A stretch of DNA of 64,000 nucleotides from Patescibacteria group bacterium (GTDB lineage Bacteria; Patescibacteriota; Patescibacteriia; Veblenbacterales; UBA10138), in NCBI GenBank assembly GCA_041648575.1, contig JBAZOT010000001.1:31298-95297 (forward strand), written 5' to 3'. This document shows positions 5,294 through 64,000 of the stretch, one piece after another; within the stretch, counting starts at the first letter, position 1, and the number at the start of each line of letters is the position of its first letter. The translations under genes and the position numbers were made by a program. The notes beneath the pieces are model-generated. The model saw only the letters and a list, made by a program, of their open reading frames with translations. It did not search any database and was not told the DNA's origin.

Positions 5294-5635
5294 ATGCCAT
5301 CATATCTAATTAATTCACCTAAAGCCAATTCACAGGTTGATCAAAAAAAAGTTAGCCGAGTTTTAAGCATATCATTATTAACTTCTTTTATAATTCTTTT
5401 AATTGCTTATGTTGTTGAAACTAATGAGTTAGCAACTAAAGGGTATGAAATTAGGGCCTTAGAACAGCAGGTAGAAGCATTAGAGCAAAGTTACGAAGAA
5501 TATGAACTTAAAGCCGGTGAATTGCAGGCCCTTAATAATATGAATAATTTGCAAATAAAGGATTTTGTAGCAGTGGAAAAAGTTGAATATCTAAGTACTA
5601 TACCAACATCTAGTGGAGTAGCGGTTAACCAATAA
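5294..5635 (+). CDS. ftsL: Cell division protein FtsL-like (single TM plus coiled coil)
   Basis: Small bitopic protein with a heptad-like LEQQVEALEQSYEEYELKAGELQALNN, located between rsmH and ftsI as in dcw clusters. Confidence 0.55.
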   Translation: MPSYLINSPKANSQVDQKKVSRVLSISLLTSFIILLIAYVVETNELATKGYEIRALEQQVEALEQSYEEYELKAGELQALNNMNNLQIKDFVAVEKVEYLSTIPTSSGVAVNQ

Positions 5636-5641
5636 TTTTTT

Positions 5642-7393: not shown

Positions 7394-7399
7394 TTAATT

Positions 7400-8683
7400 A
7401 TGAAGAAAATCATACAATTTATACTTAAAGTTTTGGCTAGATCCACAATTACTAGGTATCAACCAAGGGTAGTGGGAATTACTGGGTCGGTGGGCAAAAC
7501 CTCAACTAAGGAGGCTATAGCTGCTATTTTGGCTTTAAGATATTCTGTTGGGCAAACGAATAAGAATTTTAATAATGAAATTGGTCTGCCCCTGACAATT
7601 ATCGGTGCTAAGAATTCTGGATATAGAAATCCGATTACTTGGTTGATAATTTTTGTTAGGGCTTTATGGCAAATTATTGTCAAGAATAATAAATATCCTG
7701 AATTTTTAATATTGGAAATGGGTATTGATCACAAAGGCGATATGGATTATTTACTTTCAATTGTTCAGCCCGAAGCTGGAGTGTTAACCGCAGTGTCCGA
7801 AGTTCATTTGGAATTTTTAGGTAGTATTGATAACGTGGTTTACGAAAAGGGAAAGTTGTTACGGTCGTTGCCTAAGCAGGGTATTGCAGTAATAAATTGC
7901 GAAGATCAACGCTTATTAACATTGTTAGATAAAATTAAGGCGAAGATCATAACTTTCGGTTTTTCCAATCAAGCACAAGTTTGGGCTGATGGTATTCAAA
8001 TGTCCAAAAATAACAACAACGAGGTGCAGGGTTTGAGTTTTAAATTGCATTATGGTGGGGGAGTAACGCCATTATTGTTGCCGCAGGTTTTAGGCAGACA
8101 TCAAATTAATATTGCACTAGCTGCGGCGGCAATTGGTTTGGGTTTAGAGTTTACTGCTGTTGATGTATCTTCAGCGCTAAGAAATTTTACTTTTCCGCCA
8201 GGCAGAATGAAATTAATACCAGGAGTTAAGAATACAAAAGTTATTGACGATAGTTATAATTCTTCACCTTTAGCTTTAAAAGAAGCACTTAAAACTTTAG
8301 CTGATTTTCCGCTTAATGGGCAAGCAAAGCGCTGGGCAATCTTAGGTGACATGTTGGAATTAGGGGCTGATAGTATTAAGTTGCACCGCGAATGTGGTGA
8401 ATTGGTTGCTAATTTAGGAATTGATTATTTAATGACAGTAGGTGAGCAATCCAGAGATCTTGGTAGGGGCGCGGGAGCGAGCGGGTTTGGGCGTGATAAT
8501 TATGTTCATTTTGCCACTGCTCAAGAAGCAGCCCTGTTTGTTAAAGATAAATTGTGTGAGGGAGATGTATTGTTAATTAAAGGTTCGCAAGGGATTCGTA
8601 TGGAACGGGCGGTTAAAGAACTAATGGCCGATCCTACCAAAGCAAATGATTTATTAGTACGACAATATAAACCTTGGATTTAA
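7400..8683 (+). CDS. murF: UDP-N-acetylmuramoyl-tripeptide--D-alanyl-D-alanine ligase MurF
   Basis: Mur ligase P-loop ITGSVGKTSTKE; middle and C-terminal Mur ligase domains. Follows ftsI directly, so murE is absent here. Confidence 0.85.
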   Translation: MKKIIQFILKVLARSTITRYQPRVVGITGSVGKTSTKEAIAAILALRYSVGQTNKNFNNEIGLPLTIIGAKNSGYRNPITWLIIFVRALWQIIVKNNKYPEFLILEMGIDHKGDMDYLLSIVQPEAGVLTAVSEVHLEFLGSIDNVVYEKGKLLRSLPKQGIAVINCEDQRLLTLLDKIKAKIITFGFSNQAQVWADGIQMSKNNNNEVQGLSFKLHYGGGVTPLLLPQVLGRHQINIALAAAAIGLGLEFTAVDVSSALRNFTFPPGRMKLIPGVKNTKVIDDSYNSSPLALKEALKTLADFPLNGQAKRWAILGDMLELGADSIKLHRECGELVANLGIDYLMTVGEQSRDLGRGAGASGFGRDNYVHFATAQEAALFVKDKLCEGDVLLIKGSQGIRMERAVKELMADPTKANDLLVRQYKPWI

Positions 8684-8695
8684 TATTTTAAAGCT

Positions 8696-9643
8696 ATGTC
8701 AAAAATTTTAATCACTGGAGCTTTTGGACAAATTGGTAGTGAATTAGTTCCAGTACTTCAGCAAAAATATGGATTGGATAATGTTATCGCTGCTGGTCAC
8801 AGCAATTTACCCGAAAAATTTGTCGGAATATCGGAAAAAATATCAATTTCCGATACTAGTTCATTGAATGATGTAATAAAAAAATACAACATTGATACTA
8901 TTTATCATTTAGCATCATTCCTTTCGGCTAAGTGTGAGCGTGATCCGGATTTAGCTTGGCAAGTGAATATGGGTGGTCTAAAAAATATTTTAGACCTTGC
9001 ACGTGATAAAAAGTTAAAGGTTTTTTGGCCCAGTTCAATAGGAGCGTTTGGACCAACTACACCAAAAATTAATACACCTCAGCATACAATTATGGAGCCC
9101 ACAACAATTTATGGCGTTACCAAACTGGCTGGCGAATTATTATGTCAGTATTATTTTTTGAAATACGGCGTCGATGTTAGGAGTGTACGCTATCCTGGTA
9201 TTATCACGTATAAAACAGAGCCGTCTGACGGAACAACAGAATATTCTATAACAATGTTATATGAGGCAGCTAAAGGGGTTAAAGTTTTTAGTTGTTTTTT
9301 AACTGACAATACCTTATTGCCAATGATGTATATTGATGATGCTATTTGGGCGACAATTGCCTTAATGGATGCACCAGCAGAAAATATAAAAATTAGAACC
9401 AGTTATAATTTAGCTGCTATTAGTTTTTCACCCAAAGAATTATTACAGGAAATAAATAAATATATTCCGGATTTTGTTTGTGAATATAAGCCAGATTTTC
9501 ATCAAGCTATTGCTGATTCCTGGCCAAAGACTATTAATGATAATGAGGCCAGAGAGCAATGGGGTTGGGGTCATCAATATGATTTAACCAAAATGACCAA
9601 ATTGATTTTGGATAAATTAAGGGAAAAATTTGGGAAGTCTTGA
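8696..9643 (+). CDS. tdh: NAD-dependent epimerase/dehydratase-family L-threonine 3-dehydrogenase
   Basis: ILITGAFGQIGSEL Rossmann motif, YxxxK (YGVTKLAGE), and GVDVRSVRYPGII / IADSWP blocks characteristic of the short-chain UDP-Gal-epimerase-like TDH family (recalled from memory, not searched). Confidence 0.65.
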   Translation: MSKILITGAFGQIGSELVPVLQQKYGLDNVIAAGHSNLPEKFVGISEKISISDTSSLNDVIKKYNIDTIYHLASFLSAKCERDPDLAWQVNMGGLKNILDLARDKKLKVFWPSSIGAFGPTTPKINTPQHTIMEPTTIYGVTKLAGELLCQYYFLKYGVDVRSVRYPGIITYKTEPSDGTTEYSITMLYEAAKGVKVFSCFLTDNTLLPMMYIDDAIWATIALMDAPAENIKIRTSYNLAAISFSPKELLQEINKYIPDFVCEYKPDFHQAIADSWPKTINDNEAREQWGWGHQYDLTKMTKLILDKLREKFGKS

Positions 9644-9702
9644 AACTATTGACTAAAATAGATTTTTAACGTATTTTTTATTAACTGTTAGTAATATATA
9701 TA

Positions 9703-9762
9703 AGACGCTATCGTCTAGTGGTTGGTCTGCTAGATGCAGATCCTCCTCCGGAGGAGACAACT
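9703..9762 (+). other. tRNA-Glu-like 5' fragment (TATCGTCTAGTGGTTGG resembles the D-arm of the adjacent tRNA-Glu) followed by a GC hairpin CTCCTCC/GGAGGAG; not a foldable tRNA
   Basis: Sequence similarity to the D-arm of the tRNA at 9806-9880. No T-arm, D-stem does not pair. Confidence 0.25.
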
Positions 9763-9805
9763 AAAGTAAGAAATATTTTGGTGTTATTAAAATGAACTAT
9801 CCCAT

Positions 9806-9880
9806 GGCGCATTCGTCTAGTGGCTAGGACACATGGTTCTCATCCATGCAACAGGGGTTCGATTCCCCTATGCGCTACCA
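9806..9880 (+). tRNA. tRNA-Glu (anticodon CUC), CCA encoded
   Basis: Cloverleaf folds by hand: acceptor GGCGCAT/ATGCGCT, D-arm TCGTCTAGTGGCTAGGAC, anticodon stem CATGG/CCATG with loop TTCTCAT, T-arm GGGGTTCGATTCCCC, discriminator A, CCA. Closely parallels E. coli tRNA-Glu. Confidence 0.85.
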
Positions 9881-9892
9881 GTATCATTTATG

Positions 9893-9973
9893 GTGTAGAA
9901 TTGTAATCCGAGCCTGCGCCGTAGACCCGCCTCGGGCGGATTCTTCGGGGTTCAACTCCCGGTAGCGGTCCCA
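9893..9973 (+). other. tRNA-like element: T-arm CGGGGTTCAACTCCCGG, a CCGCC-TCG-GGCGG hairpin (variable-arm-like), 3' TAGCGGT-C-CCA; full cloverleaf not resolved
   Basis: Canonical T-loop TTCAACT plus an encoded CCA seen. No matching 5' acceptor strand and no anticodon stem found by hand. The 3' acceptor strand TAGCGGT (within GGTAGCG, 9961-9967) is complementary to CGCTACC (9873-9879) inside the tRNA-Glu 3' end. Confidence 0.3.
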
Positions 9974-10062
9974 GCTCCCCAGTATCTGGAACGTTTGACG
10001 TTCTTGCTGGGTGGATTTTGGGTAAATAAAAAAACTCAAAAATATATCAAGTAATCTTCTTT

Positions 10063-11460
10063 TTATTTACTAACCAAAAGTTCAGCTGTAATCGAGGTTA
10101 AGTTCCTATCGTTGTAATAATCAGTTAATTGTTGTTGCCAATCTTTGTCCTTAATAGAAATATTAGGTTCTACACCGCGGCCTTCGATCGGTTGATTATC
10201 GTCTCTTAAAGTTACAGCTTTAACTATGAGAGCTGAATATTCAATATTATCCTTAATTATGGTTTTAAGAGGGAAGAAGTTTTCTACAGTACCGCGACCG
10301 CCAGTAGTTTCACCAATTAATATACCGATATTGTATTTTTTTAAAGTGGTAGCCAAAACTTCAGCTGTGGATTGCGTTCCTTTGTCAATCAAAACAATAA
10401 TTCTTCTAAATCGTGCTAAACTTGAAATTTTTTCAGTAACAGTTTTATGCGGTTCAGTTTCACCTTTACGAAAATAATCATAAGCATATTGGTTATGGCC
10501 AATAAAAAAGCCGGCGAGATATGGCAGGGTATCGATATTGCCGCCAAAATTACTTCGTAAATCAATAATCAAAGCTTTTAAGTTATCATTGGCCGTTTCT
10601 TGTAAACGCTGTTTGAATTCGTCAATAGTAGTTGGAGCGATTTGTTTAATTTTTAAATAAAGAATATCTGGCTCGCAGATTTTATAAACTATAGTTGGTT
10701 CAGCTCCTGTTTTATCATATGTAGTCCGCGCCAAAGGATCACCAATGGTTTCAAAAGCACGTTTGGCTGAAGACAATTGTTGTTGAGCTTCTGCAGAAGT
10801 GTCGTCTTTCAAAGTTGTAATTTTATTCTGATAAATTTGGTTGATTTTATCTGGTGGGGCATTTTTATCTACGCCTAAAACAAAATAAAGATCAGTAGTT
10901 GGGTCAGTACTGTTTACTTTATTTCTTAATTCTTGTTGTTTGTCATTACTGTAAAGTCTGCTTCTGTTTTGGGGAGATAGACTTGCTAAAATAGCATCCC
11001 CTAAAGTTACCACCAGTTCTTGTTGTTTAGTTTGGTCATAATTATTCAACCAGTCGTCAAGTAGGTTAACTAAACTAGCGCGTTCGGGTTTTTTTAGGAT
11101 TTGTGGTTTACCAGTTAATTTTTCCACTCCCAGTCGGTATAAATTAGTTAATTGTTCATCAGTTATTTTATCCCAGTGATTTTCCTTAACAGTATCATAA
11201 AGCTCAACTAAAAAAGAGACGTTTTGATTTTGAATTTCAGATTTTTTTTGTAGGCTAATAGTATAGCCCATGCCAGTTAGTAAGCCGAATATAAAAATTG
11301 CTAGAATAACTATCCCGTAACTAATTTTAAGATATATTTTAAATTTAGCAGCAAAATGTAATTTAATCCTCTTGGTATAATTTAGGTTACTTTTTGGAGG
11401 AATAAAATCAGAAGGTGTATTATGCGGTTGGAAGAAATTGTTTTCGTAGTTGTTAGCCAT
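10063..11460 (-). CDS. Carboxyl-terminal processing protease (S41 family), membrane-anchored
   Basis: N-terminal TM; S41 signature IIDLRSNFGGN…; catalytic Ser/Lys region. Confidence 0.7.
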   Translation of the reverse strand: MANNYENNFFQPHNTPSDFIPPKSNLNYTKRIKLHFAAKFKIYLKISYGIVILAIFIFGLLTGMGYTISLQKKSEIQNQNVSFLVELYDTVKENHWDKITDEQLTNLYRLGVEKLTGKPQILKKPERASLVNLLDDWLNNYDQTKQQELVVTLGDAILASLSPQNRSRLYSNDKQQELRNKVNSTDPTTDLYFVLGVDKNAPPDKINQIYQNKITTLKDDTSAEAQQQLSSAKRAFETIGDPLARTTYDKTGAEPTIVYKICEPDILYLKIKQIAPTTIDEFKQRLQETANDNLKALIIDLRSNFGGNIDTLPYLAGFFIGHNQYAYDYFRKGETEPHKTVTEKISSLARFRRIIVLIDKGTQSTAEVLATTLKKYNIGILIGETTGGRGTVENFFPLKTIIKDNIEYSALIVKAVTLRDDNQPIEGRGVEPNISIKDKDWQQQLTDYYNDRNLTSITAELLVSK

Positions 11461-11793: not shown

Positions 11794-12168
11794 TTATTCA
11801 GTTGAATCAGTGTCACTACCTTCCAGTGGTTCTTCATCAGGTAATATTTCCTGTTTAACAACGGGTTTTTTGGTTTCAGCAAAAGGATTGCCAAGAGAAT
11901 CTATTGCCTGTTGATCATATTCCTTTTTGCTTTCTAAAGCAGAAAAAACTTCATTATACAAATTCATATCAATAGTCTTTAAAGATATTTGACTTCGGTA
12001 AATATAAATTTCTTCAGCTTGGGTAAGTGTATTGTAAAAGTAAACATATAAGAAATTAACCAGCCAAATTAATATCACAATAATTACAGCTAGTGTGCCA
12101 ACGGGTAATAATTTTAACAGGGCGCCAGGCGTAACTTTTATTTTTTTAAAAGATAAGTTAAATTTCAT
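11794..12168 (-). CDS. Small membrane-anchored protein with acidic tail, distal gene of the pilus operon (PilP-like?)
   Basis: Single TM, 4-nt ATGA overlap with the pilO stop (translational coupling). Confidence 0.35.
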   Translation of the reverse strand: MKFNLSFKKIKVTPGALLKLLPVGTLAVIIVILIWLVNFLYVYFYNTLTQAEEIYIYRSQISLKTIDMNLYNEVFSALESKKEYDQQAIDSLGNPFAETKKPVVKQEILPDEEPLEGSDTDSTE

Positions 12169-12734
12169 GGTTTATAGTAAGCGTTAGCTAATAGTAGAGT
12201 AGTTATATTGGAATGATTATTAAATACTTCTTGTGGATTTACTGAGCCGGTATTAATTCTAATAGTTGAGATGTTAAGATAATAATCAAGATTTTCTAAG
12301 CCAACTAAGTAGTTCATTAAGTTAGTAAAATTACTAACCAAGGTAATTTGCAGGGGCAAGGTTTTGATTGTTTTTTCCTTTGGAGTGGTTGAGGTAAGTT
12401 TAATATTTGGCACAATGTTATTATTTTCTGACAAATTTTCTAGAGAAGTGAATAAATCTAATTCTTGACCCGATTGAATATAAGCACGATTAAGTAGTAA
12501 AACAGTTGGTTTGATTTGTTGATATTGTTCTAAGGTTTGCTTTAAATTTTGACCACGTAAATAAATTTTTTCGAGTTCTACCCTTTGAGTAAAAATTTCG
12601 TTACTAAGTTCCTTAATTCTAGTAATACAGGGGTAGATTAGTAGAATAATTAGGCCACTAACAATAATAGCCACAGCAGATAAACTGATAATAATTTTTT
12701 GTTTCGGTGGACTGGCTGATGAAAGGAGTAACAT
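12165..12734 (-). CDS. pilO: Type IV pilus assembly protein PilO
   Basis: N-terminal TM, coiled coil, PilO-like periplasmic domain; operon position after pilN. Confidence 0.6.
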   Translation of the reverse strand: MLLLSSASPPKQKIIISLSAVAIIVSGLIILLIYPCITRIKELSNEIFTQRVELEKIYLRGQNLKQTLEQYQQIKPTVLLLNRAYIQSGQELDLFTSLENLSENNNIVPNIKLTSTTPKEKTIKTLPLQITLVSNFTNLMNYLVGLENLDYYLNISTIRINTGSVNPQEVFNNHSNITTLLLANAYYKP

Positions 12735-43783: not shown

Positions 43784-45574
43784 ATGCCTAATAATAACAA
43801 AACTCATCAACCAGACAACGAACAGGAATCAAACTCACCTTTAGCTTTTTTAAAGTGGATATCTTGGCCACTAGTTAAGTTGGGTAAGTTAATGTTTGGC
43901 AACATGAACCAACGCAAGCAGATGTGGTATTTGCTGGTGGGTATTTTGGCCATGTCTTTATTTACAGGTTTAATTGATTGGCCCAAAGTACCGAATTGGG
44001 TTCCGGGAACCAGTTTTTGGAATAAATTTAATGTGCAATTAGGGTTAGATTTACAGGGCGGTAGTCATCTAGTATATCAAGCAGATCTAAGTGGTATTCC
44101 CCCAGGAGAGGAGTCGTCAGCGGTAGAGGGGGTAAGGGATGTTATTGAAAGAAGGGTTAATTTTTTTGGTGTATCTGAACCAGTGGTGCAAACTAATAAG
44201 GCAGGAGATAATTGGCGAGTCATTATAGAATTACCTGGTATTAAAGATGTCAACGAAGCTATTAAGCTGATTGGTGAAACTCCAATATTGGAATTTAAAG
44301 AACAAGCCCCGGTACCAGTTCAACCAATCGATACAGAAACAGATGCGCGTGAACGTGCGGATAGCGTTTTAACAGACGCCTTAAAGCCCAAAACTGACTT
44401 TGCGGCATTGGCTAAAGAATTTTCAGAAGATGAAGGGTCACGTGAACAGGGTGGTGATTTGGGGTGGTTTAAGGCGGGTGTAATGGTACCCGAATTTGAG
44501 CAAGCTGTAATGGAATTAAAAGTAGATCAGATCAGTAAAACCTTGGTGCAAACGCAGTTTGGTTTTCATATTATCAAAAAGACTGGTGAGCGCCAGATTG
44601 CAGAAGGAGAACAAGAAGTTACAGAATACCAAGCTAGTCATATTTTGATTAAAACACCTAATGTTCAAGTTGGTGAAAACTGGCAAGCAACTGGCCTGTC
44701 TGGTAAGCAACTTAAACGCGCTCAAGTACAATTTGACAGTAGCGCTGGTTTACCAGAAGTACAGTTAGTTTTTAATGATGAAGGTAAGGATTTATTTGGC
44801 GAAATTACTGCTCGTAATGTAGGTCAACCAGTAGCTATTTTTTTAGATGGCGTACCTATTAGCGTTCCTACAGTACAGCAAGCAATAACTGGTGGAGAAG
44901 CAGTAATCACAGGAAATTTTTCCTTGACCGAAGCCAAGCAGTTGGTACAGCGCTTAAACGCTGGTGCCTTACCAGTTCCGATTCATTTAATTAATCAGCA
45001 GGTGATAGACGCAACTTTGGGTAAAGAATCTGTGGAAAAAAGTTTGTTAGCCGGCATCATTGGTTTATTGGCTGTGGCTTTGTTTATGATTATTTATTAT
45101 CGTTTGCCAGGATTTTTATCAGTATTAGCATTGTCTATTTATACTTTGATTACCTTTGCCATATTTAAATTATGGCCTATAACTTTAACCTTGCCTGGTA
45201 TCGCTGGTTATATTTTGTCTATTGGCATGGCGGTTGATGCTAATGTTTTAATTTTTGAAAGATTGAAAGAAGAGTTGCGGGCTGGCAAACCATTGCCGCA
45301 TGCGATAGAAGAGGGCTTTAAGCGCGCTTGGACTTCTATTCGCGATTCCAATATATCAAGTTTAATTACTTCTATTATTTTGATTTGGTTTGGCTCGTCC
45401 TTAATTAAGGGTTTTGCTATTACTTTGTCAATTGGTATTTTAATAAGTATGTTTTCAGCCATTACTATTACGAGGACTTTTTTGCGTTTGTTGGCCACTG
45501 GTAAATTTAATCAATTAACTTTTTTATTTGGCGTGTCTAAAAAGAAGCTGGCTGTACAGCAAAAAGTATTATGA
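43784..45574 (+). CDS. secD: Protein translocase subunit SecD with an embedded parvulin-type PPIase domain in the periplasmic region
   Basis: SecD blocks ([57 protein letters not shown]). A segment inserted between them carries GGDLGWF … FGFHIIK followed by ASHILIK (parvulin/PpiC signatures). Confidence 0.8.
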
Positions 45575-53629: not shown

Positions 53630-54463
53630 TTACAGATATACCTGAACGTACAAATTCGTGAGCTTAGAATGATATTGCCATCCCATTCCCACGAGTGTCT
53701 GAATGCCGTTTGGCCCCTGATAGACCTTAGTCCACCCGAGTTCCAGGTGGTCGAACGAGCGACTGTATTTGTTGTAGTTTGCCGTAACATAGGGGGCAAA
53801 CCATTTTGCGCGATATTCAACAAATCCGGTTGTGACCTTGTCATTCGCAACGAACCATTTCAGGGTCATTTCATCACATTCCACACCCGCTGCAATTCCT
53901 TTCCTCACTGTACTCGCAAATCCTCCGAGTTTGAGTGTGCCCAAAACAGTTTTCTGTTCGAGACACGCGTTCCATTCAATTTTTTTGTGGGGAGCTAAAT
54001 AGTAGCTTCCAACCTGGATAAATGGTCCATTAGCAAACTGCCGCGAGATTGCGAGTCCCGTTCCAACTCCGGGTATTGCCGCAATTGCTGGGGGTTCGAA
54101 GTGACCGCCCGACGTGAGTGGCATAGGCCGCATGATGAGCGTAATAGGACGAGGCATAAACCCTCCGGCGATTTTTATGGTTCCGAAATCCTTCGAAAGC
54201 ACGAACTTTCCGAAAACCGAATTACTGCTGGGAGAGAAGTCGTACCCTGCCCATGCACCCAGCTCAATGCTCTCAAATAGTGGGGCGGTAAAATCGCCAC
54301 CAACCCGAATACTTGCCTCGTGTGTGATCGTCAACTCGCTGTTGTAGCTACCGGTATAGAGGATGCCGGCGTATGTTTTCGTAACCTTAAGCGAGTCAAG
54401 TTGAGCAAAAGAAAAAGCGGTAAAAGCGAGAAGCAGCGTGAAAACAACAATAAGGTGTTTCAT
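53630..54463 (-). CDS. Outer-membrane beta-barrel-like protein (Sec signal peptide plus amphipathic beta-strand pattern), in a GC-rich (~50%) islet
   Basis: Start MKHLIVVFTLLLAFTAFSFA-QL (signal peptide, AXA-type cleavage), RBS AAAGAGGA. Body shows alternating hydrophobic/aromatic residues with frequent G/Y/F/W and a C-terminal …YVQVYL. GC markedly above the window average. The overlapping ORFs 53473-53850 and 53669-53998 are judged spurious. Confidence 0.5.
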   Translation of the reverse strand: MKHLIVVFTLLLAFTAFSFAQLDSLKVTKTYAGILYTGSYNSELTITHEASIRVGGDFTAPLFESIELGAWAGYDFSPSSNSVFGKFVLSKDFGTIKIAGGFMPRPITLIMRPMPLTSGGHFEPPAIAAIPGVGTGLAISRQFANGPFIQVGSYYLAPHKKIEWNACLEQKTVLGTLKLGGFASTVRKGIAAGVECDEMTLKWFVANDKVTTGFVEYRAKWFAPYVTANYNKYSRSFDHLELGWTKVYQGPNGIQTLVGMGWQYHSKLTNLYVQVYL

Positions 54464-54627
54464 AATATATCCTCTTTTTTTGTTAAGGAACTCTTGGGAT
54501 CTGCCCAAGTCAGTGCAAGTTTATCTTGCTAATAAATTACAATTTTCTATTTTTATTTAATAAATTAGTATAGACCTTAAGCTAATTTTTGTCAAGCGAA
54601 TGCTGTTAATGCTATACTTATTGTGCT

Positions 54628-57430: not shown

Positions 57431-58516
57431 ATGAAAAAAGAAGATGAATATATAAGCATAATTAGATCATCCGGCTTACGTCACGTCAGTTCTAGAAATC
57501 TACCCTTGATAACGGTTAGCTGTATTTTTTTTGGTTATAATGAAATACTTAAAAGTCAGGTTGGTTATCAATACGGCACAATTGCTAATATTGGCATAAA
57601 AGATAATGCATATTTTCTGATCAATGAGGATAAAATTGGTAGGTTATTCGATAAATTTGTAAGTAAGAGAAAAGAAAAAATTTTAATAAAAAAATTTTCT
57701 AAAAAATTAATTGATAATAAAAGTGTTTTGAAATCTTTGATGTCTAAAAATTATTTCAATTCACTTCCAACTATTTTAGACTTGTATCTCCAAGTGCTAG
57801 GTCAAATTGGTTTTTATAATTCTATGATGAGGTATATCAAGGATGATAAAAACAAAGCCAAATATTGGCGAAGTTTGTTTAATTTTGTATCAAAAGATAA
57901 AGATAGGGTAGCAAACTTAATTTATTGCGTTATTGAACCTTTATTAAAAAAAAGTTGCCAGAGTATAGGTAGAGATTTTAATTTTGATGGTGATCTTTTA
58001 AAATATATGACTTTACGGGAGATGCAAGAGTATTTATTAACAAAAAGAATAAATAAAAAAATATTACTAACTTTAAAGAAAAGGAGAGAAGGTTATGTTT
58101 ATTTATATTATAAAGAAAAAGATTATGTACTAATTGATAAACCTTTTGTTCATAAAGTATATAAGGAATTTATTATTCCGAAAAAAATAGTTAATATAAT
58201 AAAAGGCGTGCCGGCTTATCCTGGTAAAGTTGTTGGAAAAGTATTTAATACTTTTCATGGTTTAAAAACAGTCAAGCATGGTAGTATATTAGTTACAAAT
58301 GTCACCAATCCGAAAGATAATGTTTTATTAAAAAAGTTTGCTGCTATTGTCACTAATGAAGGTGGTTTACTCTCGCATGCTTCAATAATCTCAAGAGAGT
58401 TTAAAATTCCTTGTATTATTGGTACCAAAATAGCTACGCAAATATTTAAAGACGGGGATAGAGTGGAAGTAGATGCTAATAAGGGGATAGTTAAATTATT
58501 AAAAAAGAAAAGTTGA
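57431..58516 (+). CDS. Protein with C-terminal PEP-utilizing-enzyme mobile (phosphohistidine swivel) domain; N-terminal 270 aa unassigned
   Basis: C-terminus …TNEGGLLSHASIISREFKIPCIIGTKIATQ…DGDRVEVDANKGIV matches the GG-x-SHAAI-x-RE-x-x-P-x-VVG swivel His motif. Confidence 0.6.
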   Translation: MKKEDEYISIIRSSGLRHVSSRNLPLITVSCIFFGYNEILKSQVGYQYGTIANIGIKDNAYFLINEDKIGRLFDKFVSKRKEKILIKKFSKKLIDNKSVLKSLMSKNYFNSLPTILDLYLQVLGQIGFYNSMMRYIKDDKNKAKYWRSLFNFVSKDKDRVANLIYCVIEPLLKKSCQSIGRDFNFDGDLLKYMTLREMQEYLLTKRINKKILLTLKKRREGYVYLYYKEKDYVLIDKPFVHKVYKEFIIPKKIVNIIKGVPAYPGKVVGKVFNTFHGLKTVKHGSILVTNVTNPKDNVLLKKFAAIVTNEGGLLSHASIISREFKIPCIIGTKIATQIFKDGDRVEVDANKGIVKLLKKKS

Positions 58517-59988
58517 TGGATAATCGTAACTTATTGAAACAAATTAATAAGGTTGATTGGGAATATGTTATTAATCGCCGGGAAGCGTTGCTATTTCGAT
58601 CTCTGACAGATACTTGCTATCAGTATCAAGTCATTGGCATCCATTGGAAACCTAAATACATTTTGCGTTTAATAAGCGGAGAATTTTATCATAGCCACCA
58701 CGAGTTGGAGGGGTTGCGTAACAGCATAGCTGAGTATAGTGATAGATTGGGAACTGATTTTAAAACAAGACTCCTAAAGTATATTGGTAATCTAGATAGA
58801 TTAGCATCCCGAATTGAGGAAATTGATTGTAATAAATTAAACCATCGTCAGATTATAAGTTTGCTCGTTTCCTATTATCAAGCGGCACTTAAAGCGCATT
58901 GTTTTTTATTACCTTTTCCAGTAGGAGATAGTATTATTGCCTCAGAAATAATCAAGTTGCTCCTTACTGCCTCAGATGAGCAAAAACGTCGGTGGTTGGC
59001 TATTTTATCTTCTCCAGCTAAAGAAAATAGCCATACCCAAGAAGAGCGCTCGTTATATCGTTTGGCTATTGCCTATCAAGTAAATAAACAGCAATATATC
59101 AGATTACTACGAAAGCATGTTAATAAATATGCCTGGATAGGAGCACGGGGATATTATTTTGATAATGCCTGGAACAAAAAAGATATTGAAGCTAGGGTTA
59201 AAAATTTATTTTTTCAAGGTAAAAATCCTGCCAAAGAGCTTAAATATCTTGATAATTTCCAAAAAGACCAGAAACGTGCCAGGACTGAATTAATTAAAGA
59301 GCTTAAGATAGATAAAAACCCCCGCCTTTATAGATTAGTTAAACTAGCTTCTGAATTTGCTTATATACGCACTTGGCGTACTGATTTAATCTATAGAGCA
59401 GGTTACAAAGTGCGCCATCTTTTTTATAAGGTGGCTGATAATTTAGATGTTTCCCACAGCGACATTATTTATCTGACATTTCAGGAAATTATTACTTCGG
59501 CAAAAAAAGGTGAGTCATCAATACCAAAAAGTGAAATAATTAAACGCCAACAATTTTTCGCTGCCTTCTTATTACAAGGTAAATATCAAGTTTTGTCTGG
59601 TAATATTTGGAAGCAGCTGTTAAAAAATTATAAGCATTCATCTAAACAGGAAACAGAATTCACTGGTACGTCTGCCTATACAGGTAAAGTCATCGGTAAA
59701 GCAAAAATAGTGATGCAAATTCGTGATATAAGTAAAGTTCAGGCTGGCGATATATTAGTGGCGCCTATGACTTTTCCAAATTTTATTGCAGCCATGGAAA
59801 AAGCCAGTGCTTTTGTGACTGACGAAGGTGGAATATTATGTCACGCCGCTATTATTTCTCGCGAAATGAAAAAACCTTGTATAATAGGCACTAAAATTGC
59901 TACTCAAGTTTTGAAGGATGGTGATTTAGTAGAGGTAGATGCCAATAAAAGGATTGTAAAAATATTAAAAAAATCCCGATTCAAGTAA
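58513..59988 (+). CDS. Paralogous protein with C-terminal PEP-utilizing-enzyme mobile domain; N-terminal ~400 aa unassigned (RPH/PEP-synthase-like middle domain?)
   Basis: C-terminus …TDEGGILCHAAIISREMKKPCIIGTKIATQ…DGDLVEVDANKRIV; start overlaps the upstream stop (ATGA). Confidence 0.6.
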   Translation: MMDNRNLLKQINKVDWEYVINRREALLFRSLTDTCYQYQVIGIHWKPKYILRLISGEFYHSHHELEGLRNSIAEYSDRLGTDFKTRLLKYIGNLDRLASRIEEIDCNKLNHRQIISLLVSYYQAALKAHCFLLPFPVGDSIIASEIIKLLLTASDEQKRRWLAILSSPAKENSHTQEERSLYRLAIAYQVNKQQYIRLLRKHVNKYAWIGARGYYFDNAWNKKDIEARVKNLFFQGKNPAKELKYLDNFQKDQKRARTELIKELKIDKNPRLYRLVKLASEFAYIRTWRTDLIYRAGYKVRHLFYKVADNLDVSHSDIIYLTFQEIITSAKKGESSIPKSEIIKRQQFFAAFLLQGKYQVLSGNIWKQLLKNYKHSSKQETEFTGTSAYTGKVIGKAKIVMQIRDISKVQAGDILVAPMTFPNFIAAMEKASAFVTDEGGILCHAAIISREMKKPCIIGTKIATQVLKDGDLVEVDANKRIVKILKKSRFK

Positions 59989-60015
59989 TTTTTGAATCGG
60001 GATAATTATTAGACA
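59983..60015. terminator. 11-bp perfect hairpin TCCCGATTCAA/TTGAATCGGGA between the convergent genes (includes the stop of the upstream gene); bidirectional terminator
   Basis: Seen directly. Confidence 0.55.
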
Positions 60016-60035
60016 ACTTTCACCCACTATGATTT

Positions 60036-60623
60036 TTAATCATTGAGGTATTCAAACACCCCTGCGTTAGGATTGTATCTGAAAATATGAATTAGATCTT
60101 TCCACATTTCTTCACTGCGAGCCCATCCTTTAAGCATTTCAGTATTAGTAACTCCTCTAGCCCAACCAATAAGTCCCGCGACTATCGGTCTGTGTGTACC
60201 AATTAGTACTTTTACTTCTCCTGACATGTCTTGAGATAGATGTGACATTCGTAGATTATTGGTAACAAATAATATGGCGTTCTTTTGCCAATAATCGTAC
60301 CATTCTTTTTCACATTGGGGATAAAAATATGTTTTTCCACTTTGTCGACTAGCATGTTGACCAAGAAGACGGCTTGTCCGCCAATCCATATTAAGAGCCA
60401 TACACAGTATTGAATTGACATCATTACCGCGACATAACCGCGATGAGTACGCGAGATCGAATGGTCCTAATTCCTTGATTTTAGGAACAATGGATTGTAT
60501 CTGCATCATTCCTTGTTCATTCATTGGGGGATTTGATAGTAACACTGGGTCTTCAGTTGTTTGAAATTTCATCTTATCACCATGCACGACGAATACAATT
60601 GTAAAGATCATTATTTTCTCCAA
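60036..60623 (-). CDS. Histidine phosphatase superfamily (phosphoglycerate-mutase-like) protein
   Basis: N-terminal VFVVHGD (RHG-like) and a second His block IGTHRPIV; assignment moderate. Confidence 0.45.
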   Translation of the reverse strand: MEKIMIFTIVFVVHGDKMKFQTTEDPVLLSNPPMNEQGMMQIQSIVPKIKELGPFDLAYSSRLCRGNDVNSILCMALNMDWRTSRLLGQHASRQSGKTYFYPQCEKEWYDYWQKNAILFVTNNLRMSHLSQDMSGEVKVLIGTHRPIVAGLIGWARGVTNTEMLKGWARSEEMWKDLIHIFRYNPNAGVFEYLND

Positions 60624-60756
60624 GTTTTGTTTTTCATTAGTTATTTTGTTTTAAAATCAATTAAGTCTAGCAAGGAGATGTTTATTTGTCAAGAGTTAGA
60701 ATAATTGCAATAATTAGAATAGATTGCTTCACCCCGTCTGACGGGGTTCGCAATGA

Positions 60757-61030
60757 CTATCAAGGGTTTATGAGTAAACGTTCACTTAAATTAGAAATAA
60801 TGCAAAAAATGACTGAATTAGCTACAGCTGGTTTTGGCTTGGTAGCAGCATTGGCTTGGAACGATGCTATTCAATCTTTATTTAAAAAATTATTTGGTAC
60901 ACAGTCAGAGGTTTGGGCAAAATTTGTTTACGCCTTAATTATTACTGGATTAGTCGTACTGATAACTATGCGTTTAGGAAACTTGGTAGATAAACTTAAA
61001 CATCAAGATAATAATGATAGCGAAAAATAA
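60757..61030 (+). CDS. Small two-TM membrane protein (91 aa); the ORF-track start at 60686 (TTG) is probably too far upstream
   Basis: ATG at 60757 (MSKRSLKLE…), two hydrophobic helices. The region upstream of that ATG is occupied by hairpins. Confidence 0.4.
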
Positions 61031-61037
61031 AATGTAC

Positions 61038-61099
61038 TGTCATTGCGAGCGAAGCGAAGCAATCTAGATTACTTCGTCGCTAAAGCTCCTCGTAATGAC
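61038..61099 (+). repeat. 31-nt TGTCATT…AATCTAGA element (61038-61068) inside a long imperfect hairpin with its inverted partner GTCATTACGAG (61089-61099)
   Basis: Shares its 7-nt prefix and 8-nt suffix at identical 31-nt length with 63017-63047. An inverted GTCATTGCGAA copy lies at 60747-60757. Confidence 0.5.
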
Positions 61100-61124
61100 T
61101 AAAAAGAATTATCATTTGTAAAAT

Positions 61125-62921
61125 ATGAAAGATTTGCGTGTGAATAATTTGAACTGGAAAATTGGCGGTCAAGCTGGTTATGGTATTTTATCAGCTGGAG
61201 AGATTTTTGCTTATTCATGCCTGCGAGGTGGTTTAGAAACTTTTGCTTATTTAGAATATCCTTCATTAATTCGTGGCGGGCACAATACTTATCAAGTATG
61301 GGTGCGAGATGATAATGTGCAATCTCACTCTTCACAAGTCGACTTGTTAGTGGCACTTAACAAGGAAACTATTGATCGTCATATTAACGAACTTAATGAA
61401 GGCGGTGTTTTGATGTATGACACAAATGATAAATTTTTAAATGAGTGGACTTGCCCCCGACAGGATATTATTTGTTTTGGCATGCCGCTTGGTAGTTTAG
61501 CGGAAAAAGCTGGTGGCCAAAAAATGATGAGTAATGTGGCAGGCGTGGCTGCCTCTTTTGCCTTGGTTAAATATCCATTTGAATTAATAGAAGAATTTAT
61601 TACCCGAGCTTTTAAAAAAAAGGGTGAGGAAGTTGTTGATATAAATTTGGAAGTAGCGCGTGTTGCTTATGAACATGCGATTAAAAATTTCACTGGCAAG
61701 TTTGCTTGTGAATTAAAACCCAAGAAGGTTAAAGAAAAAAGAATGCTAATTAATGGCAATGAAGCCATAGCTATGGGTGCTATTAAAGCTGGATTGAAAT
61801 TTTTTGCTGCTTACCCAATGACGCCAGCTTCGTCAATTTTACATTATTTAGCCAGTCAAGAAAGAAATTATAGTATTGTGGTTAAGCAAACTGAAGACGA
61901 AATATCAGCCATGAATATGGTTGCTGGTGCTGGCTTTACTGGGGTGCGGGCAATGACTGCAACCTCGGGTGGTGGTTTTGCCCTGATGAGTGAAGCTTTG
62001 GGTTTGGCTGGCATGGTGGAATCACCAGCAGTAATTGCTTTGGTACAACGCCCAGGACCAGCTACTGGCCTGCCCACTTGGACTGAACAAGGAGATTTGC
62101 GTTTTGCCATGCACGCCGGGCAAGGAGATTCGCCGCGCGTTATTTTAGCTCCAGGCGATCCAGAAGAATGCTTTTTTATGACTTTTGAAGCATTCAATAT
62201 TGCGGAAAAATATCAATTGCCAGTAATTATTTTAAGTGATAAATATTTAGCTGAAGCTAAGCAATCGATTCCTTTTTTTAAAACCGATAAATTAAAAATT
62301 GATAGGGGAGATATTGTTAATTCTGTTAATCAATTGGAATATGATAGATTTAATCGTTATGCTGATAGCACTACAGGGGTTTCAGCTAGAACCTTGCCTG
62401 GAACACTCGGCGGAATTTTTACTGCTAATAGTGATGAACATGATGTTACTGGTTTAGTGGAAGAGAGCGAGGAAAATAGAAAAATCATGATGGATAAAAG
62501 AATGCGTAAATTGCAATTATTAAAAAATGGAATTAAAGATTCGGTTAAACTTTATGGACCAAAAAATGCTGATATTACTATCGTTGGTTGGGGATCTACT
62601 AAAGGGGCGATACTTGAGGCTATGAAGATGATCGAGAGCGAGTCTATGAAGGCGAAGTCCGGTACCGAAACGCGTAGCGGGTCTGGTACGCGGGTAAACT
62701 TTTTACAGATAAGATTATTAAGTCCCTTTCCTGTAAAAGAAGTAGATAGTGTTTTACGTCAAGCTAAATATCGGTTGTTAATTGAAAATAATTTTTCCGC
62801 ACAACTTGGTGGATTAATTCGTGAGAAGACAGGTATTGAGATAACCGATAAGCTTTTAAAGTACGACGGCCGACCAATACATCCAGAAGAAGTGATTGAG
62901 AAAGTTAATTCAATCAGGTAA
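61125..62921 (+). CDS. 2-oxoacid (pyruvate/2-oxoglutarate):ferredoxin oxidoreductase, fused gamma + alpha subunits
   Basis: N-terminal gamma-subunit domain (GGQAGYGILSAGEIFAYSC), then alpha-subunit POR_N domain (INGNEAIAMGAIKAGLKFFAAYPMTPASSIL) and alpha domain III. No beta (TPP/Fe-S) subunit follows. Confidence 0.8.
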   Translation: MKDLRVNNLNWKIGGQAGYGILSAGEIFAYSCLRGGLETFAYLEYPSLIRGGHNTYQVWVRDDNVQSHSSQVDLLVALNKETIDRHINELNEGGVLMYDTNDKFLNEWTCPRQDIICFGMPLGSLAEKAGGQKMMSNVAGVAASFALVKYPFELIEEFITRAFKKKGEEVVDINLEVARVAYEHAIKNFTGKFACELKPKKVKEKRMLINGNEAIAMGAIKAGLKFFAAYPMTPASSILHYLASQERNYSIVVKQTEDEISAMNMVAGAGFTGVRAMTATSGGGFALMSEALGLAGMVESPAVIALVQRPGPATGLPTWTEQGDLRFAMHAGQGDSPRVILAPGDPEECFFMTFEAFNIAEKYQLPVIILSDKYLAEAKQSIPFFKTDKLKIDRGDIVNSVNQLEYDRFNRYADSTTGVSARTLPGTLGGIFTANSDEHDVTGLVEESEENRKIMMDKRMRKLQLLKNGIKDSVKLYGPKNADITIVGWGSTKGAILEAMKMIESESMKAKSGTETRSGSGTRVNFLQIRLLSPFPVKEVDSVLRQAKYRLLIENNFSAQLGGLIREKTGIEITDKLLKYDGRPIHPEEVIEKVNSIR

Positions 62922-63016
62922 TTTTTTAACAATTAGACATCTCAATTAATTTTGTCATCCCGAACTTGTTTCGGGATCTCATAAAGATGCTGAAATAAAT
63001 TCAGCATGACCAACTG

Positions 63017-63047
63017 TGTCATTCAAGCCACTAAGCTGGAATCTAGA
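63017..63047 (+). repeat. Second copy of the 31-nt TGTCATT…AATCTAGA element, preceded by TGTCAT-hairpin (62953-62982) and the ATGCTGAA/TTCAGCAT hairpin
   Basis: See 61038-61068. Confidence 0.5.
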
Positions 63048-63140
63048 AACAAAGAAGATAAAAAGTTAACAAAATGAGCCCCATCACGATTGAATTGATG
63101 ATTAAAACATGATATAATTATTTTGATTAGTATCTTATCT

Positions 63141-63395
63141 ATGACACATCCCAAAACCATTCCTAAAGATCTTTTTCCAGTACTGTGGTCTTATGATGTG
63201 GCCAAGCTTGACCCCTGGCGTGATCGACATTCGATAATTGTGAATACCGTTAACTACGGCGACCTTAAACAATGGCGGTGGTTGGTGGAAAGCTATGGTA
63301 CCAAGGAAGTGCAGCAAGTACTCGGAGAAGCCAAGAGCTCCACAGTACTCCGCCGCCGAGCGCGCAAGCTTTTCTCCTTACTCTTAACAGTATGA
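63141..63395 (+). CDS. Small protein upstream of the AbiEii-like nucleotidyltransferase (putative cognate antitoxin partner)
   Basis: Stop lies 8 nt before the ATG of the AbiEii-like gene; GC ~45%. Conserved-looking WSYDVAKLDPWRDRHSIIVNTVNYGDLKQWRW segment. Family assignment uncertain. Confidence 0.4.
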   Translation: MTHPKTIPKDLFPVLWSYDVAKLDPWRDRHSIIVNTVNYGDLKQWRWLVESYGTKEVQQVLGEAKSSTVLRRRARKLFSLLLTV

Positions 63396-63402
63396 ACCTG
63401 TT

Positions 63403-64000
63403 ATGCACCGTGAGGCTTTAACCGAAGAGGGGGCGAAGCTCTGGCCGCAGTTGGCCAGCTTGGGCGATTTTTATTTGGCTGGTGGCACGGCCGTGGCTTT
63501 GCAGCTGGGGCACCGCGTGTCGGTTGATTTTGATTTTTTTAGCGATAAGTCCCTCTCGCTTGATTTGTTACCCTCTATTGAGCGGCTTTTTAACGAACAA
63601 AAACAACGAATTATGGTGAATAATAGTGAAGAATTAACACTCCTGATCAGCGACACCAAACTTACTTTTCTCAAATATCCCTTTCCACTGCTCTATCCCA
63701 CAATTCTCGTGGAGAGGGTACAGCTGGCGACGATTGCTGAACTCGCCGCCATAAAAGCTTACACTATTGGACGACGGGGTAGTTTTAAGGATTACTTTGA
63801 TTTGTATAGCATTTTACAGTCAGGATATGCTTTAACCACCGTGATTGCCGACGCAGAAAAAAAGTACCGCGATAACTTCAACTCCCGACTATTCTTAGAA
63901 CAGCTTGTGGATCTATCGGACATTACCGACTCTGCTTTACGTTTTTTGGTGCCGGTTATATCGCCGCCAGAGGTTGAACAATTCTTTTCTGGCGCTGTGA
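63403..64000 (+). CDS. Nucleotidyltransferase AbiEii/AbiGii toxin-family protein (DUF1814-like), partial: continues past window end
   Basis: N-terminal LAGGTAVALQLGHRVSVDFDFF matches the AbiEii 'GGTAL…R.S.DlDF' NTase motif. GC ~48% against ~33% background. Confidence 0.6.
   Translation, partial: MHREALTEEGAKLWPQLASLGDFYLAGGTAVALQLGHRVSVDFDFFSDKSLSLDLLPSIERLFNEQKQRIMVNNSEELTLLISDTKLTFLKYPFPLLYPTILVERVQLATIAELAAIKAYTIGRRGSFKDYFDLYSILQSGYALTTVIADAEKKYRDNFNSRLFLEQLVDLSDITDSALRFLVPVISPPEVEQFFSGAV

Follow-up and report, generated by a model that had tools for sequence, protein, structure and literature searches.

The 64,000-nt stretch of a Patescibacteria contig analysed here (JBAZOT010000001.1, positions 31,298 to 95,297; hereafter the window) ends within an oxidoreductase operon in which two small genes stand between the genes for the alpha and beta subunits. 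One encodes a protein of the DUF6922 family and the other a nucleotidyltransferase (NTase) of the AbiEii family; together with a promoter-like site they make up a cassette of roughly 1.0 kb. The locus was followed beyond the window on its source contig, L073 (ENA ERZ27249422 k141_390592), which is identical to the window over 60001-64000. Adding 54745 to an L073 position gives the window coordinate, and positions above 64000 are window equivalents. The order on L073 is alpha, two hairpins, the cassette, a relic of the last 35 codons of alpha followed by the same hairpins, a third palindrome, an open reading frame (ORF) for 116 amino acids (ORF116) and beta (Table 1).

Table 1. Features of the locus and of the rest of the window, with L073 positions and window coordinates (window equivalents above 64000)
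Feature	L073	Window	Strand	Remarks
Alpha subunit gene	6380-8176	61125-62921	+	598 aa, intact
Alpha-beta spacer	8177-10000			1824 nt
Repeat copy 1	8072-8279	62817-63024	+	208 nt
Hairpin 1		62957-62977		8-bp stem
Hairpin 2		62986-63010		
Junction segment		63025-63087		copy 1 to conserved cassette
Promoter-like site		63090-63118	+	consensus match only
DUF6922 gene	8396-8650	63141-63395	+	84 aa
NTase gene	8658-9272	63403-64000, on to 64017	+	204 aa
Repeat copy 2	9299-9506	64044-64251		208 nt
Hairpin 1, second copy	9440-9460			within repeat copy 2
Third palindrome	9499-9575	64244-64320		compound, 3' of repeat copy 2
ORF116	9611-9961			116 aa, membrane-like, without Pfam family
Beta subunit gene (P0268)	10001-10888	64746-65633	same as alpha	295 aa
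RecJ gene, then RNase H gene	3' of beta			
PEP-utiliser ORF pair		57431-59988	+	361 and 491 aa
292-aa ORF		53630-54508	-	GC 0.478
SecD gene		43784-45574	+	rotamase domain

The alpha gene carries the Pfam domains POR (gamma, aa 17-183), POR_N (aa 218-390) and PFOR_II (aa 510-568), and matches TIGR03710 ('2-oxoacid:acceptor oxidoreductase subunit alpha') over model positions 2-561 of 561 with 650 bits against a cut-off of 482.75. Judged by these matches, it is the complete gamma plus alpha subunit of a two-subunit 2-oxoacid:ferredoxin oxidoreductase. This agrees with the gamma-alpha fusion proposed in a preliminary description made from the sequence of the window alone. That description had the gene end in domain III, whereas Pfam naming places domain II at the C-terminus and the gamma (domain III) part at the N-terminus.

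The preliminary description also reported that the beta subunit gene (porB) was absent after alpha, and suggested that the cassette had possibly displaced it. No beta gene follows alpha inside the window, and none was seen elsewhere in its 64 kb; the only gene pair of similar size, at 43784/45571, was identified as SecD/SecF. Past position 64000, however, L073 carries an intact porB on the same contig and strand as alpha, starting 728 nt beyond the NTase stop. Its product has the domains TPP_enzyme_C and PFO_beta_C (Pfam), begins with MSTTKDFETKQFPTWCPGCG and contains the N-terminal Cys motif FPTWCPGCGDFG, and a Shine-Dalgarno-like AAGGTAAGGGG precedes its ATG. porB only seems to be missing because the window stops short of it. 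Apart from the insertion the oxidoreductase operon is intact, and the only material displaced is the 35-codon relic of alpha's own 3' end.

In its domain layout the enzyme resembles other two-subunit 2-oxoacid:ferredoxin oxidoreductases, with an alpha chain built of gamma, domain I and domain II and a beta chain with a thiamine pyrophosphate-binding domain and an N-terminal Cys motif. We take two-subunit enzymes of the TIGR03710 type to be the Sulfolobus-type 2-oxoacid:ferredoxin oxidoreductases, or KorAB. The locus differs from the two-subunit oxidoreductase operons of three relatives (L004-L006) in that alpha and beta are neither adjacent nor overlapping, the spacer between them holding three foreign or variable ORFs (DUF6922, NTase and ORF116). 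Because a signal scan detected no terminator-like site in the spacer 3' of the NTase gene, expression of beta by read-through is plausible.

The window ends inside the NTase gene, as had been noted, and only 5 of the 204 residues (17 nt) lie beyond it. The truncated ORF is 100% identical to P0001, a 204-aa protein from a Patescibacteria metagenome-assembled genome (MAG) that NCBI labels AbiEii/AbiGii toxin family protein. The AbiEii profile PF08843 (DUF1814) matches residues 22-168 over profile positions 14-200 of 238 with 48.1 bits (gathering score 22.5, E = 1.9e-12), which upholds the family assignment first made from a GGTA...R.S.DFDF motif; the N-terminus indeed reads LAGGTAVALQLGHRVSVDFDFF. 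More than 1200 homologues were found, nearly all of 204-210 aa, and PF08843 is carried by 120 of the 120 homologues listed. An alignment of 35 homologues revealed four conserved groups of residues, invariant or present in at least 90%: G27 G28; R38-V-S40-V-D42-F-D44; K118...R124 R125; and K129-D130-Y-F-D133. Within these groups G27, G28, R38, S40, D42, K118, R125, D130 and D133 are invariant, and D44 and K129 nearly so. All four DUF1814 motifs are present: motif I, hG[G/S]; motif II, R...DhD; motif III, a K amid hydrophobic residues and then an R; and motif IV, +DxxD. These motifs define DUF1814/AbiEii, and mutagenesis demonstrated that each is needed for AbiEii toxicity (PMC3985639).

Moreover, R38, S40 and D42 align with R76, S78 and D80 of MenT3. 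Ser78 of MenT3 is the auto-phosphorylation site by which antitoxins switch MenT off, and a D80A mutant is catalytically dead (PMC11375011, PMC7450476). AbiEii has been reported to be under the same auto-phosphorylation control, and AbiE has been reclassified as type VII (bioRxiv 10.64898/2026.01.19.700257). An AlphaFold model of the NTase (pLDDT, predicted local distance difference test, 95.4) gave JHP933, MenT1 and MenT4 as top Foldseek matches in the PDB (E = 3e-6 to 7e-4; template modelling (TM) scores 0.44-0.62); the fold search also returned aminoglycoside nucleotidyltransferase ANT(2'')-Ia and poly(A) polymerases. The NTase belongs to a divergent, compact branch of the AbiEii/MenT superfamily.

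An AbiEi/COG5340-type partner, for which the preliminary description had proposed a search, is not supported. The small gene upstream encodes a DUF6922 protein (PF21956; 43.6 bits, cut-off 27) without detectable similarity to AbiEi: apart from DUF6922 there was no Pfam match at E <= 0.1, and no PADLOC match. Its predicted structure comprises four helices (pLDDT 87), and the comparison with solved structures, including AbiEi (6y8q) and the chains of the MenAT1 complex, gave no match and no antitoxin-like fold. A word-index homology search returned only 2 proteins, and an exhaustive HMMER search was needed, which yielded 199 cluster representatives at E <= 0.001, mostly of 80-120 aa, with conserved positions W16, N38 and G40 (the N-x-G of 'NYG'), W47 and Y52. 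We found no mention of DUF6922 in the literature searched.

The partnership is strict. Scanning metagenomes with the 35-sequence NTase alignment gave 80 loci, 73 of them with enough upstream sequence, and in all 73 a DUF6922 ORF lies directly 5' of the NTase on the same strand. At the source locus 7 nt separate the DUF6922 stop from the start of the NTase ORF. Because of this strict linkage, its upstream position, small size, 7-nt spacing or overlap and shared promoter, DUF6922 is presumed, on the basis of architecture, to be the antitoxin or regulator of the NTase. The longer DUF6922 proteins include no DUF6922-NTase fusion of the Rosetta-stone kind, only apparent read-through fusions with host genes. 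Two proteins, P0326 and P0311, have the DUF6922 domain in frame with a host fragment (the C-terminal domain of ribosomal L19e and an RMMBL fragment), one of them apparently archaeal; they may be further cassettes abutting displaced host gene ends.

The two genes are foreign in composition, in line with the preliminary description. GC is 0.482 and GC at third codon positions (GC3) 0.494 for the DUF6922 ORF, and 0.464 and 0.497 for the NTase ORF, compared with 0.363 +/- 0.036 and 0.290 +/- 0.051 for the 50 ORFs of the window, which sets the pair about 4 standard deviations above them on GC3. The step is also seen against the immediate surroundings: 0.45 for the cassette vs 0.33-0.36 for the repeats described below, 0.34 for ORF116 and 0.37 for beta. 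The promoter-like site consists of TTGAAT, a 17-nt spacer and a TG-preceded TATAAT. This region is conserved in a relative of the cassette (L076), and similar TGnTATAAT boxes stand 5' of DUF6922 at other loci. The L076 blastn homology to the source begins at L073 8343 (window 63088); the junction segment before it (GC 0.365) has no counterpart in L076 or in a second relative, L077. Besides its two genes the insert contains no recombinase or transposase gene, and a repeat search on L073 found no terminal inverted repeats around it. Insertion of the integrase, transposase or integron type was rejected, given the lack of a recombinase gene and of terminal inverted repeats, and repeats that differ from locus to locus.

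The same repeat search demonstrated that the cassette is bracketed exactly by an imperfect direct repeat, 85% identical and with 1227 nt from start to start. Each copy comprises the final 35 codons of alpha with the stop codon, together with both hairpins. Copy 1 belongs to the working alpha gene and is homologous to the alpha of the nearest relative. Copy 2 encodes LIYERININISNKSLKYDDRPIHPEEVIEKVNSIR and a stop, a decayed alpha C-terminus with an in-frame stop just upstream; it is a decayed relic. The divergence is uneven: the first 36 nt of copy 2 are 61% identical to copy 1 (39% divergence), the next stretch has mainly synonymous differences, and 32 identical bases follow, with about 10% divergence after the first 36 nt. 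An independent second assembly, Logan SRR8449827 (contigs L072 and L074), from the same sample set as the source, reproduces the copy 1 downstream junction (repeat to cassette) and both copy 2 junctions with 0 mismatches, the start of copy 2 being visible in the tail of L072. The repeat-cassette-repeat structure is real.

Two hairpins do follow alpha, as had been described. Hairpin 1 reads ATCCCGAA-CTTGT-TTCGGGAT; hairpin 2, ATGCTGAA-ATAAA-TTCAGCAT, has no T-run after it, and the signal scan did not list it as a terminator. The folding energy of the region is -24 kcal/mol (z = -2.9 vs shuffles), and Rfam gave nothing above gathering scores on the spacer. A dispersed repeat resembling a miniature inverted-repeat transposable element was considered for the hairpins and rejected, each being single-copy in the 64-kb window; because of this, the 208-nt repeat does not represent two chance copies of a common element, within the window at least. 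The two copies of hairpin 1 have identical stems and a reverse-complemented loop (CTTGT vs ACAAG), so that the palindrome appears flipped in one copy. The third palindrome (GTCATTCCCGCGTGGGCGGGAATCC...CCGGAATGAC) has sub-threshold Rfam matches to WsnRNA46 and FtrB.

The slot between alpha and beta was then compared among relatives. A scan of species-representative genomes with alpha identified Patescibacteria relatives at 62-81% identity. The closest genome, L075 (GCA_043806155.1), has an alpha 89% and a beta 88.5% identical, with an unrelated 131-aa ORF alone between them (spacer 5551-6000); its nucleotide homology to the source breaks at L073 8139, 37 nt before the alpha stop, and resumes at 9995, 6 nt before the beta start. 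The spacer is empty in L004, L005 and L006, with a 36-nt gap or, in L005 and L006, a 14-nt overlap. It holds a 233-aa ORF in L002 (11783-12505), a 308-aa endonuclease/exonuclease/phosphatase-family ORF in L003 (11777-12713), and membrane ORFs of 119 and 381 aa in L001 (11786-13443). Most of these inserts differ in GC from their neighbours (L001: 0.40 vs 0.54), and no homology is demonstrable among the small spacer ORFs of the different genomes (best E-value 0.004 over 32 residues). The DUF6922-NTase pair lies between alpha and beta in none of L001-L006 and L075. With inserts that differ or are lacking across relatives, this spacer is a hypervariable slot for cargo in the lineage. The pair is one alternative among several.

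Between its two cargo ORFs, L001 also contains a composite relic (12164-12258) in which the 5' end of beta (16 codons, 94% identical) runs directly into the 3' end of alpha (about 12 codons). It looks like what the joining of two different alleles of the locus would produce. In L007, whose alpha is nearest in the species-representative set (81%), the contig ends at 11758, within 3 nt of the alpha gene end; a repeat of the alpha 3' end, if present in that genome as well, would be expected to break the contig there.

Elsewhere, the pair occurs frequently, in Patescibacteria and in metagenomes from groundwater, and stands beside unrelated genes. In L076 (75% identical, 52-1196) it lies 2 nt upstream of a DUF5654 gene on a contig whose GC (0.456) matches that of the cassette itself, and L076 may represent a donor-like lineage. 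DUF5654 is the gene that precedes alpha in the source lineage, and this is a second insertion slot around the same operon. The cassette lies between unrelated ORFs in L077 (71% identical) and between PfkB and fructose-bisphosphate aldolase genes in L078-L082 (60% identical). Distant relatives of the NTase (30-33% identical) occur on Aquifex aeolicus plasmid ece1, among other toxin-antitoxin (TA) genes, and on Bacteroides plasmids; the ORF 5' of the NTase matches the DUF6922 profile on the Bacteroides plasmid, and the small ORF in that position on the Aquifex plasmid does not. No relatives of the cassette were found on viral contigs or in phage records. Across L083-L162 the cassette is mostly lower in GC than its flanks (mean difference -0.045; 31/68 below -0.05), and the source window is one of only two loci in which it is clearly higher.

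Flanking repeats are a recurrent feature of these loci. Within 300-nt flanks, a same-strand repeat spans the cassette in 14 of 56 loci, compared with 9 of 350 control intervals of equal size placed at other positions in these loci (odds ratio 12.6, Fisher p = 6e-8); the 14 include one locus counted twice and two matches in low-complexity sequence. Each of these loci has its own repeat, of 17-208 nt, usually derived from the 3' end of the upstream host gene, as in L161 (122 nt of the 3' end of a histidine-kinase gene), L119, L077, L088, L099, L128 and L134; L078 and L084 instead repeat the 5' end of the aldolase gene that lies downstream. In the 12 loci with repeats that were measured, the cassette-specific segment between the copies is 892-1257 nt long, and it ends 0-60 nt past the NTase stop in 9 of them, 139 nt past it in L128 and 292 nt in L134. 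The repeat-bearing loci have no common terminal motifs, inverted repeats or recombinase gene. Differences between repeat copies, read in the host frames, fall on codon positions 1:2:3 in the ratio 17:11:47 (chi-square p = 3e-7). In L161 the third position accounts for 9 of 10 differences, and the 34 residues encoded by the relic are unchanged. With differences concentrated on third codon positions, the copies resemble alleles with separate histories as coding sequence in different genomes.

These data bear on how the cassette came to lie where porB would normally follow. The preliminary description had suggested a horizontally acquired AbiEii-type module, and its foreign GC, its own promoter-like site, the 208-nt repeat, its absence from the same slot in L075 and L001-L006 and its unrelated contexts elsewhere all speak for that view. 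The same description had held that porB immediately downstream, with the pair conserved in relatives, would indicate an ancient rather than an inserted pair. The first is roughly the case, with the relic and ORF116 intervening; the pair, however, is not conserved in relatives, and the conclusion 'inserted rather than ancient' therefore stands. As an explanation of the whole, we consider it likely that a horizontally acquired, self-promoted TA-like cassette was inserted by recombination with DNA of a related strain, displacing the resident alpha 3' end.

In this proposal, related-strain DNA already bearing alpha, hairpins and cassette would recombine homologously within alpha, and the far end of the donor DNA, just past the NTase stop, would be joined illegitimately inside the resident alpha 3' end. 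Intact alpha would be regenerated, and the resident 3' end would be shifted downstream as a relic. Such a route would amount to homology-facilitated illegitimate recombination (HFIR), also known as 'C-terminal displacement'. Naturally transformable bacteria provide documented cases of HFIR, which has also been put forward to explain 'C-terminal displacement' arrays (PMC5361080), and Patescibacteria of the Saccharibacteria group are naturally competent (PMC10633639). The locus has the feature to be expected of HFIR: immediately after the incoming DNA stands a relic of the resident gene end, and this relic differs from the functional end as an allele would. We infer the route from the allele-like copies and the composite relic of L001, both of which point to it. 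A Campbell-type single crossover of a circularised repeat-plus-cassette unit may instead have taken place and would give the same product.

The nearest parallels are the Rhs/contact-dependent inhibition arrays and the type VI secretion effector-immunity arrays of Vibrio cholerae (PMC5361080), in which an incoming allele with its cargo recombines in the conserved 5' part and the resident 3' end is orphaned downstream. There, too, relic and new end differ as alleles. The present locus differs in that the displaced end belongs to a housekeeping metabolic gene and the cargo is a TA-like cassette instead of a toxin tip with its immunity gene. It also differs from an integrase-borne element or a transposon: the repeats are locus-specific and of widely varying length, unlike a fixed att site or a short target duplication.

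Several observations weigh against this explanation. When JGI metagenome contigs were searched for exact matches to 49 nt at the junction past the NTase stop, no donor allele was found. The presumed illegitimate joint (CTT joined to ATT) offers at most 3 nt of possible microhomology, none of it clear, and the spacer of the nearest relative is non-homologous to that of the source, which leaves no clean 'empty site' for comparison. Plain decay also fits the first 36 nt of copy 2, with their non-synonymous changes. On the side of the NTase, sequence searches of the PDB with the protein alone or with the 35-sequence profile gave no meaningful match, the PADLOC AbiEii models scored only about 24 bits, and the TM-scores of the fold matches likewise indicate distance from characterised toxins.

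The strongest competitor is that the flanking repeat arose in situ, as a target duplication at insertion (through widely staggered breaks or replication slippage) that has since decayed, involving neither a second allele nor a homologous anchor. We regard this as unlikely, yet worth serious consideration. The repeat brackets the cassette exactly, and the non-synonymous start of copy 2 with the in-frame stop upstream of it is what a decaying pseudogene would display. Furthermore, in compact genomes whose gene ends overlap, as by the 14 nt in L005 and L006, only insertions that duplicate an end spare both neighbours. However, the 47 of 75 differences at third positions exceed the expectation for a neutral relic (p about 0.012; a rough expectation of 51% on positions 1 and 2 was set), and the L161 relic, unchanged in 34 residues, points the same way. 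The very uneven divergence along the source repeat also speaks against this reading, and repeat lengths from 17 to 208 nt are unlike a transposase footprint. Moreover, in-situ duplication cannot yield the composite relic of L001 in one event. Recombination with a related strain remains the explanation we prefer.

By analogy with MenT and AbiEii, the NTase would extend tRNA 3' ends with nucleotides and bring translation to a halt. DUF6922, translated just upstream on the same transcript, would neutralise it, perhaps by binding the NTase and triggering auto-phosphorylation of Ser40, which corresponds to Ser78 of MenT3. The outcome would be an addictive and/or abortive-infection module, with beta expressed by read-through or from its own signals. 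Such behaviour, if the analogy holds, would explain why cassettes persist in essential operons of very small genomes.

Alternatively, the pair may not be a TA or abortive-infection system at all, the NTase having a non-toxic role (nucleotidylation of RNA or small molecules, or a resistance-type modification) and DUF6922 serving as subunit, specificity factor or regulator. The remote similarity of the NTase to proven toxins would fit such a role, as would ANT(2'')-Ia and poly(A) polymerases among the fold matches, the lack of an antitoxin-like fold in DUF6922 and the position of the cassettes inside housekeeping operons instead of defence islands. Nevertheless, the four DUF1814 toxin motifs, including the family-specific Arg of motif II and the +DxxD of motif IV, vary little or not at all, the same is true of the Ser at the position phosphorylated in MenT, and the best fold matches (JHP933, MenT1 and MenT4) are themselves DUF1814 proteins. 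The architecture is classic for TA systems, with a small upstream gene coupled to an enzyme gene, a private promoter, a patchy distribution and foreign composition, and related pairs lie among other TA genes on ece1. We consider a non-toxic role improbable, slightly more so than duplication in situ.

Like AbiE of Streptococcus agalactiae and Lactococcus (Dy et al. 2014, PMC3985639), the cassette is bicistronic, patchy and mobile, with a small upstream gene and a DUF1814 NTase of the polymerase-beta type that belongs to Pfam AbiEii and has motifs I-IV (GG; R..S.D.D; K.......R; KDxxD). Unlike AbiE, its partner is an 84-aa, all-helical DUF6922 protein in place of the two-domain winged helix-turn-helix AbiEi/COG5340 of about 200 aa, and its NTase is about 30% shorter.

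With MenAT1 of Mycobacterium tuberculosis (PMC7450476, PMC10435456, PMC11375011) the cassette shares a compact DUF1814 toxin (MenT1, about 190 aa; fold match E = 4e-5 to 7e-4), a small antitoxin unrelated to COG5340, a Ser two residues before the first catalytic Asp (S40/D42 here) and, by analogy, the expected activity of adding nucleotides to tRNA acceptor stems. It differs in that the PDB profile search showed no sequence-level similarity between the NTases, DUF6922 has no detectable homology to a known MenA, and the host is a genome-reduced Patescibacterium. The best structural match is JHP933 of Helicobacter pylori (PDB 4o8s, 4ok0; E = 3e-6, TM 0.6), a DUF1814 NTase of the plasticity zone and likewise a strain-variable, horizontally moving gene; it differs in length (232 aa), and identity is 16-17%. 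We know of no DUF6922 partner for JHP933.

The family label of the NTase is already in public records, and TA insertions are common; the insertion itself is an ordinary selfish one with an instructive scar. New here are DUF6922 as a strict partner, a compact branch of the toxins and the allelic duplications of gene ends that recur around the cassettes and record their entry. DUF6922 thereby becomes the strictly linked partner (73/73 loci) of a compact AbiEii/MenT branch, and the pair offers a test case for whether antitoxin-induced auto-phosphorylation extends to another unrelated antitoxin fold. The relic gene ends provide a readable footprint of foreign-gene entry into extremely compact genomes without obvious mobile-element machinery. 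Speculatively, and with considerable doubt, we suggest that cassettes of DUF6922 and compact NTase might form a mobile TA family that ultra-small bacteria exchange without a recombinase, carried between related genomes on the ends of conserved housekeeping genes by one-sided homologous recombination or Campbell-type circle integration and leaving long allelic duplications, with DUF6922 as a new antitoxin class for a DUF1814 toxin, possibly acting through Ser40 auto-phosphorylation.

Two further explanations of the locus can be set aside. That the pair has long belonged to the oxidoreductase operon as a functionally linked accessory, for instance an enzyme regulator, would suit its strand, its tight packing with alpha and beta and the L076 copy adjoining DUF5654, the gene preceding alpha in this lineage; it is nonetheless highly improbable, the pair being absent between alpha and beta in all seven relatives, 4 standard deviations from host genes on GC3, flanked by an alpha relic and found beside unrelated genes in dozens of loci. 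An assembly artefact, in which a free circle or strain variant was threaded in at a shared repeat, is scarcely credible. It is true that the source contig comes from a MAG, that Logan unitigs are interrupted within the repeat and that the L007 contig ends at the alpha stop. However, about 15% of positions differ between the copies, which a k = 141 contig keeps apart because they share no identical stretch longer than about 35 nt (32-35 nt at most), each copy's private variants are linked to its own flank, the second assembly reproduces the copy 1 downstream and both copy 2 junctions, and the same kind of structure occurs in many unrelated samples.

Upstream of alpha lie genes for PfkB, a PduL-type phosphotransacylase and acetate kinase, two ORFs with a phosphoenolpyruvate (PEP)-utiliser domain, a histidine-phosphatase-like gene (minus strand) and DUF5654. 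This fits a fermentative pyruvate-to-acetate context; the pyruvate-to-acetate fermentation module of this genome is complete and the enzyme is not broken. The two adjacent PEP-utiliser ORFs, of which the first has a very low GC (0.27), have as their sole recognisable domain a C-terminal PEP-utilising 'mobile' domain. They sit between acetate kinase and DUF5654, two genes that directly adjoin in L004, L005 and L007.

The 292-aa ORF (GC3 0.505) is atypical in composition to the same degree as the cassette. Its N-terminus resembles a signal peptide, and its sequence is porin-like, rich in beta strands and without a Pfam family, which is odd for a Patescibacterium; the ORF may be another foreign gene. 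Finally, SecD carries a PPIC-type peptidyl-prolyl isomerase (rotamase) domain within its periplasmic region (Rotamase_3, aa 181-267).

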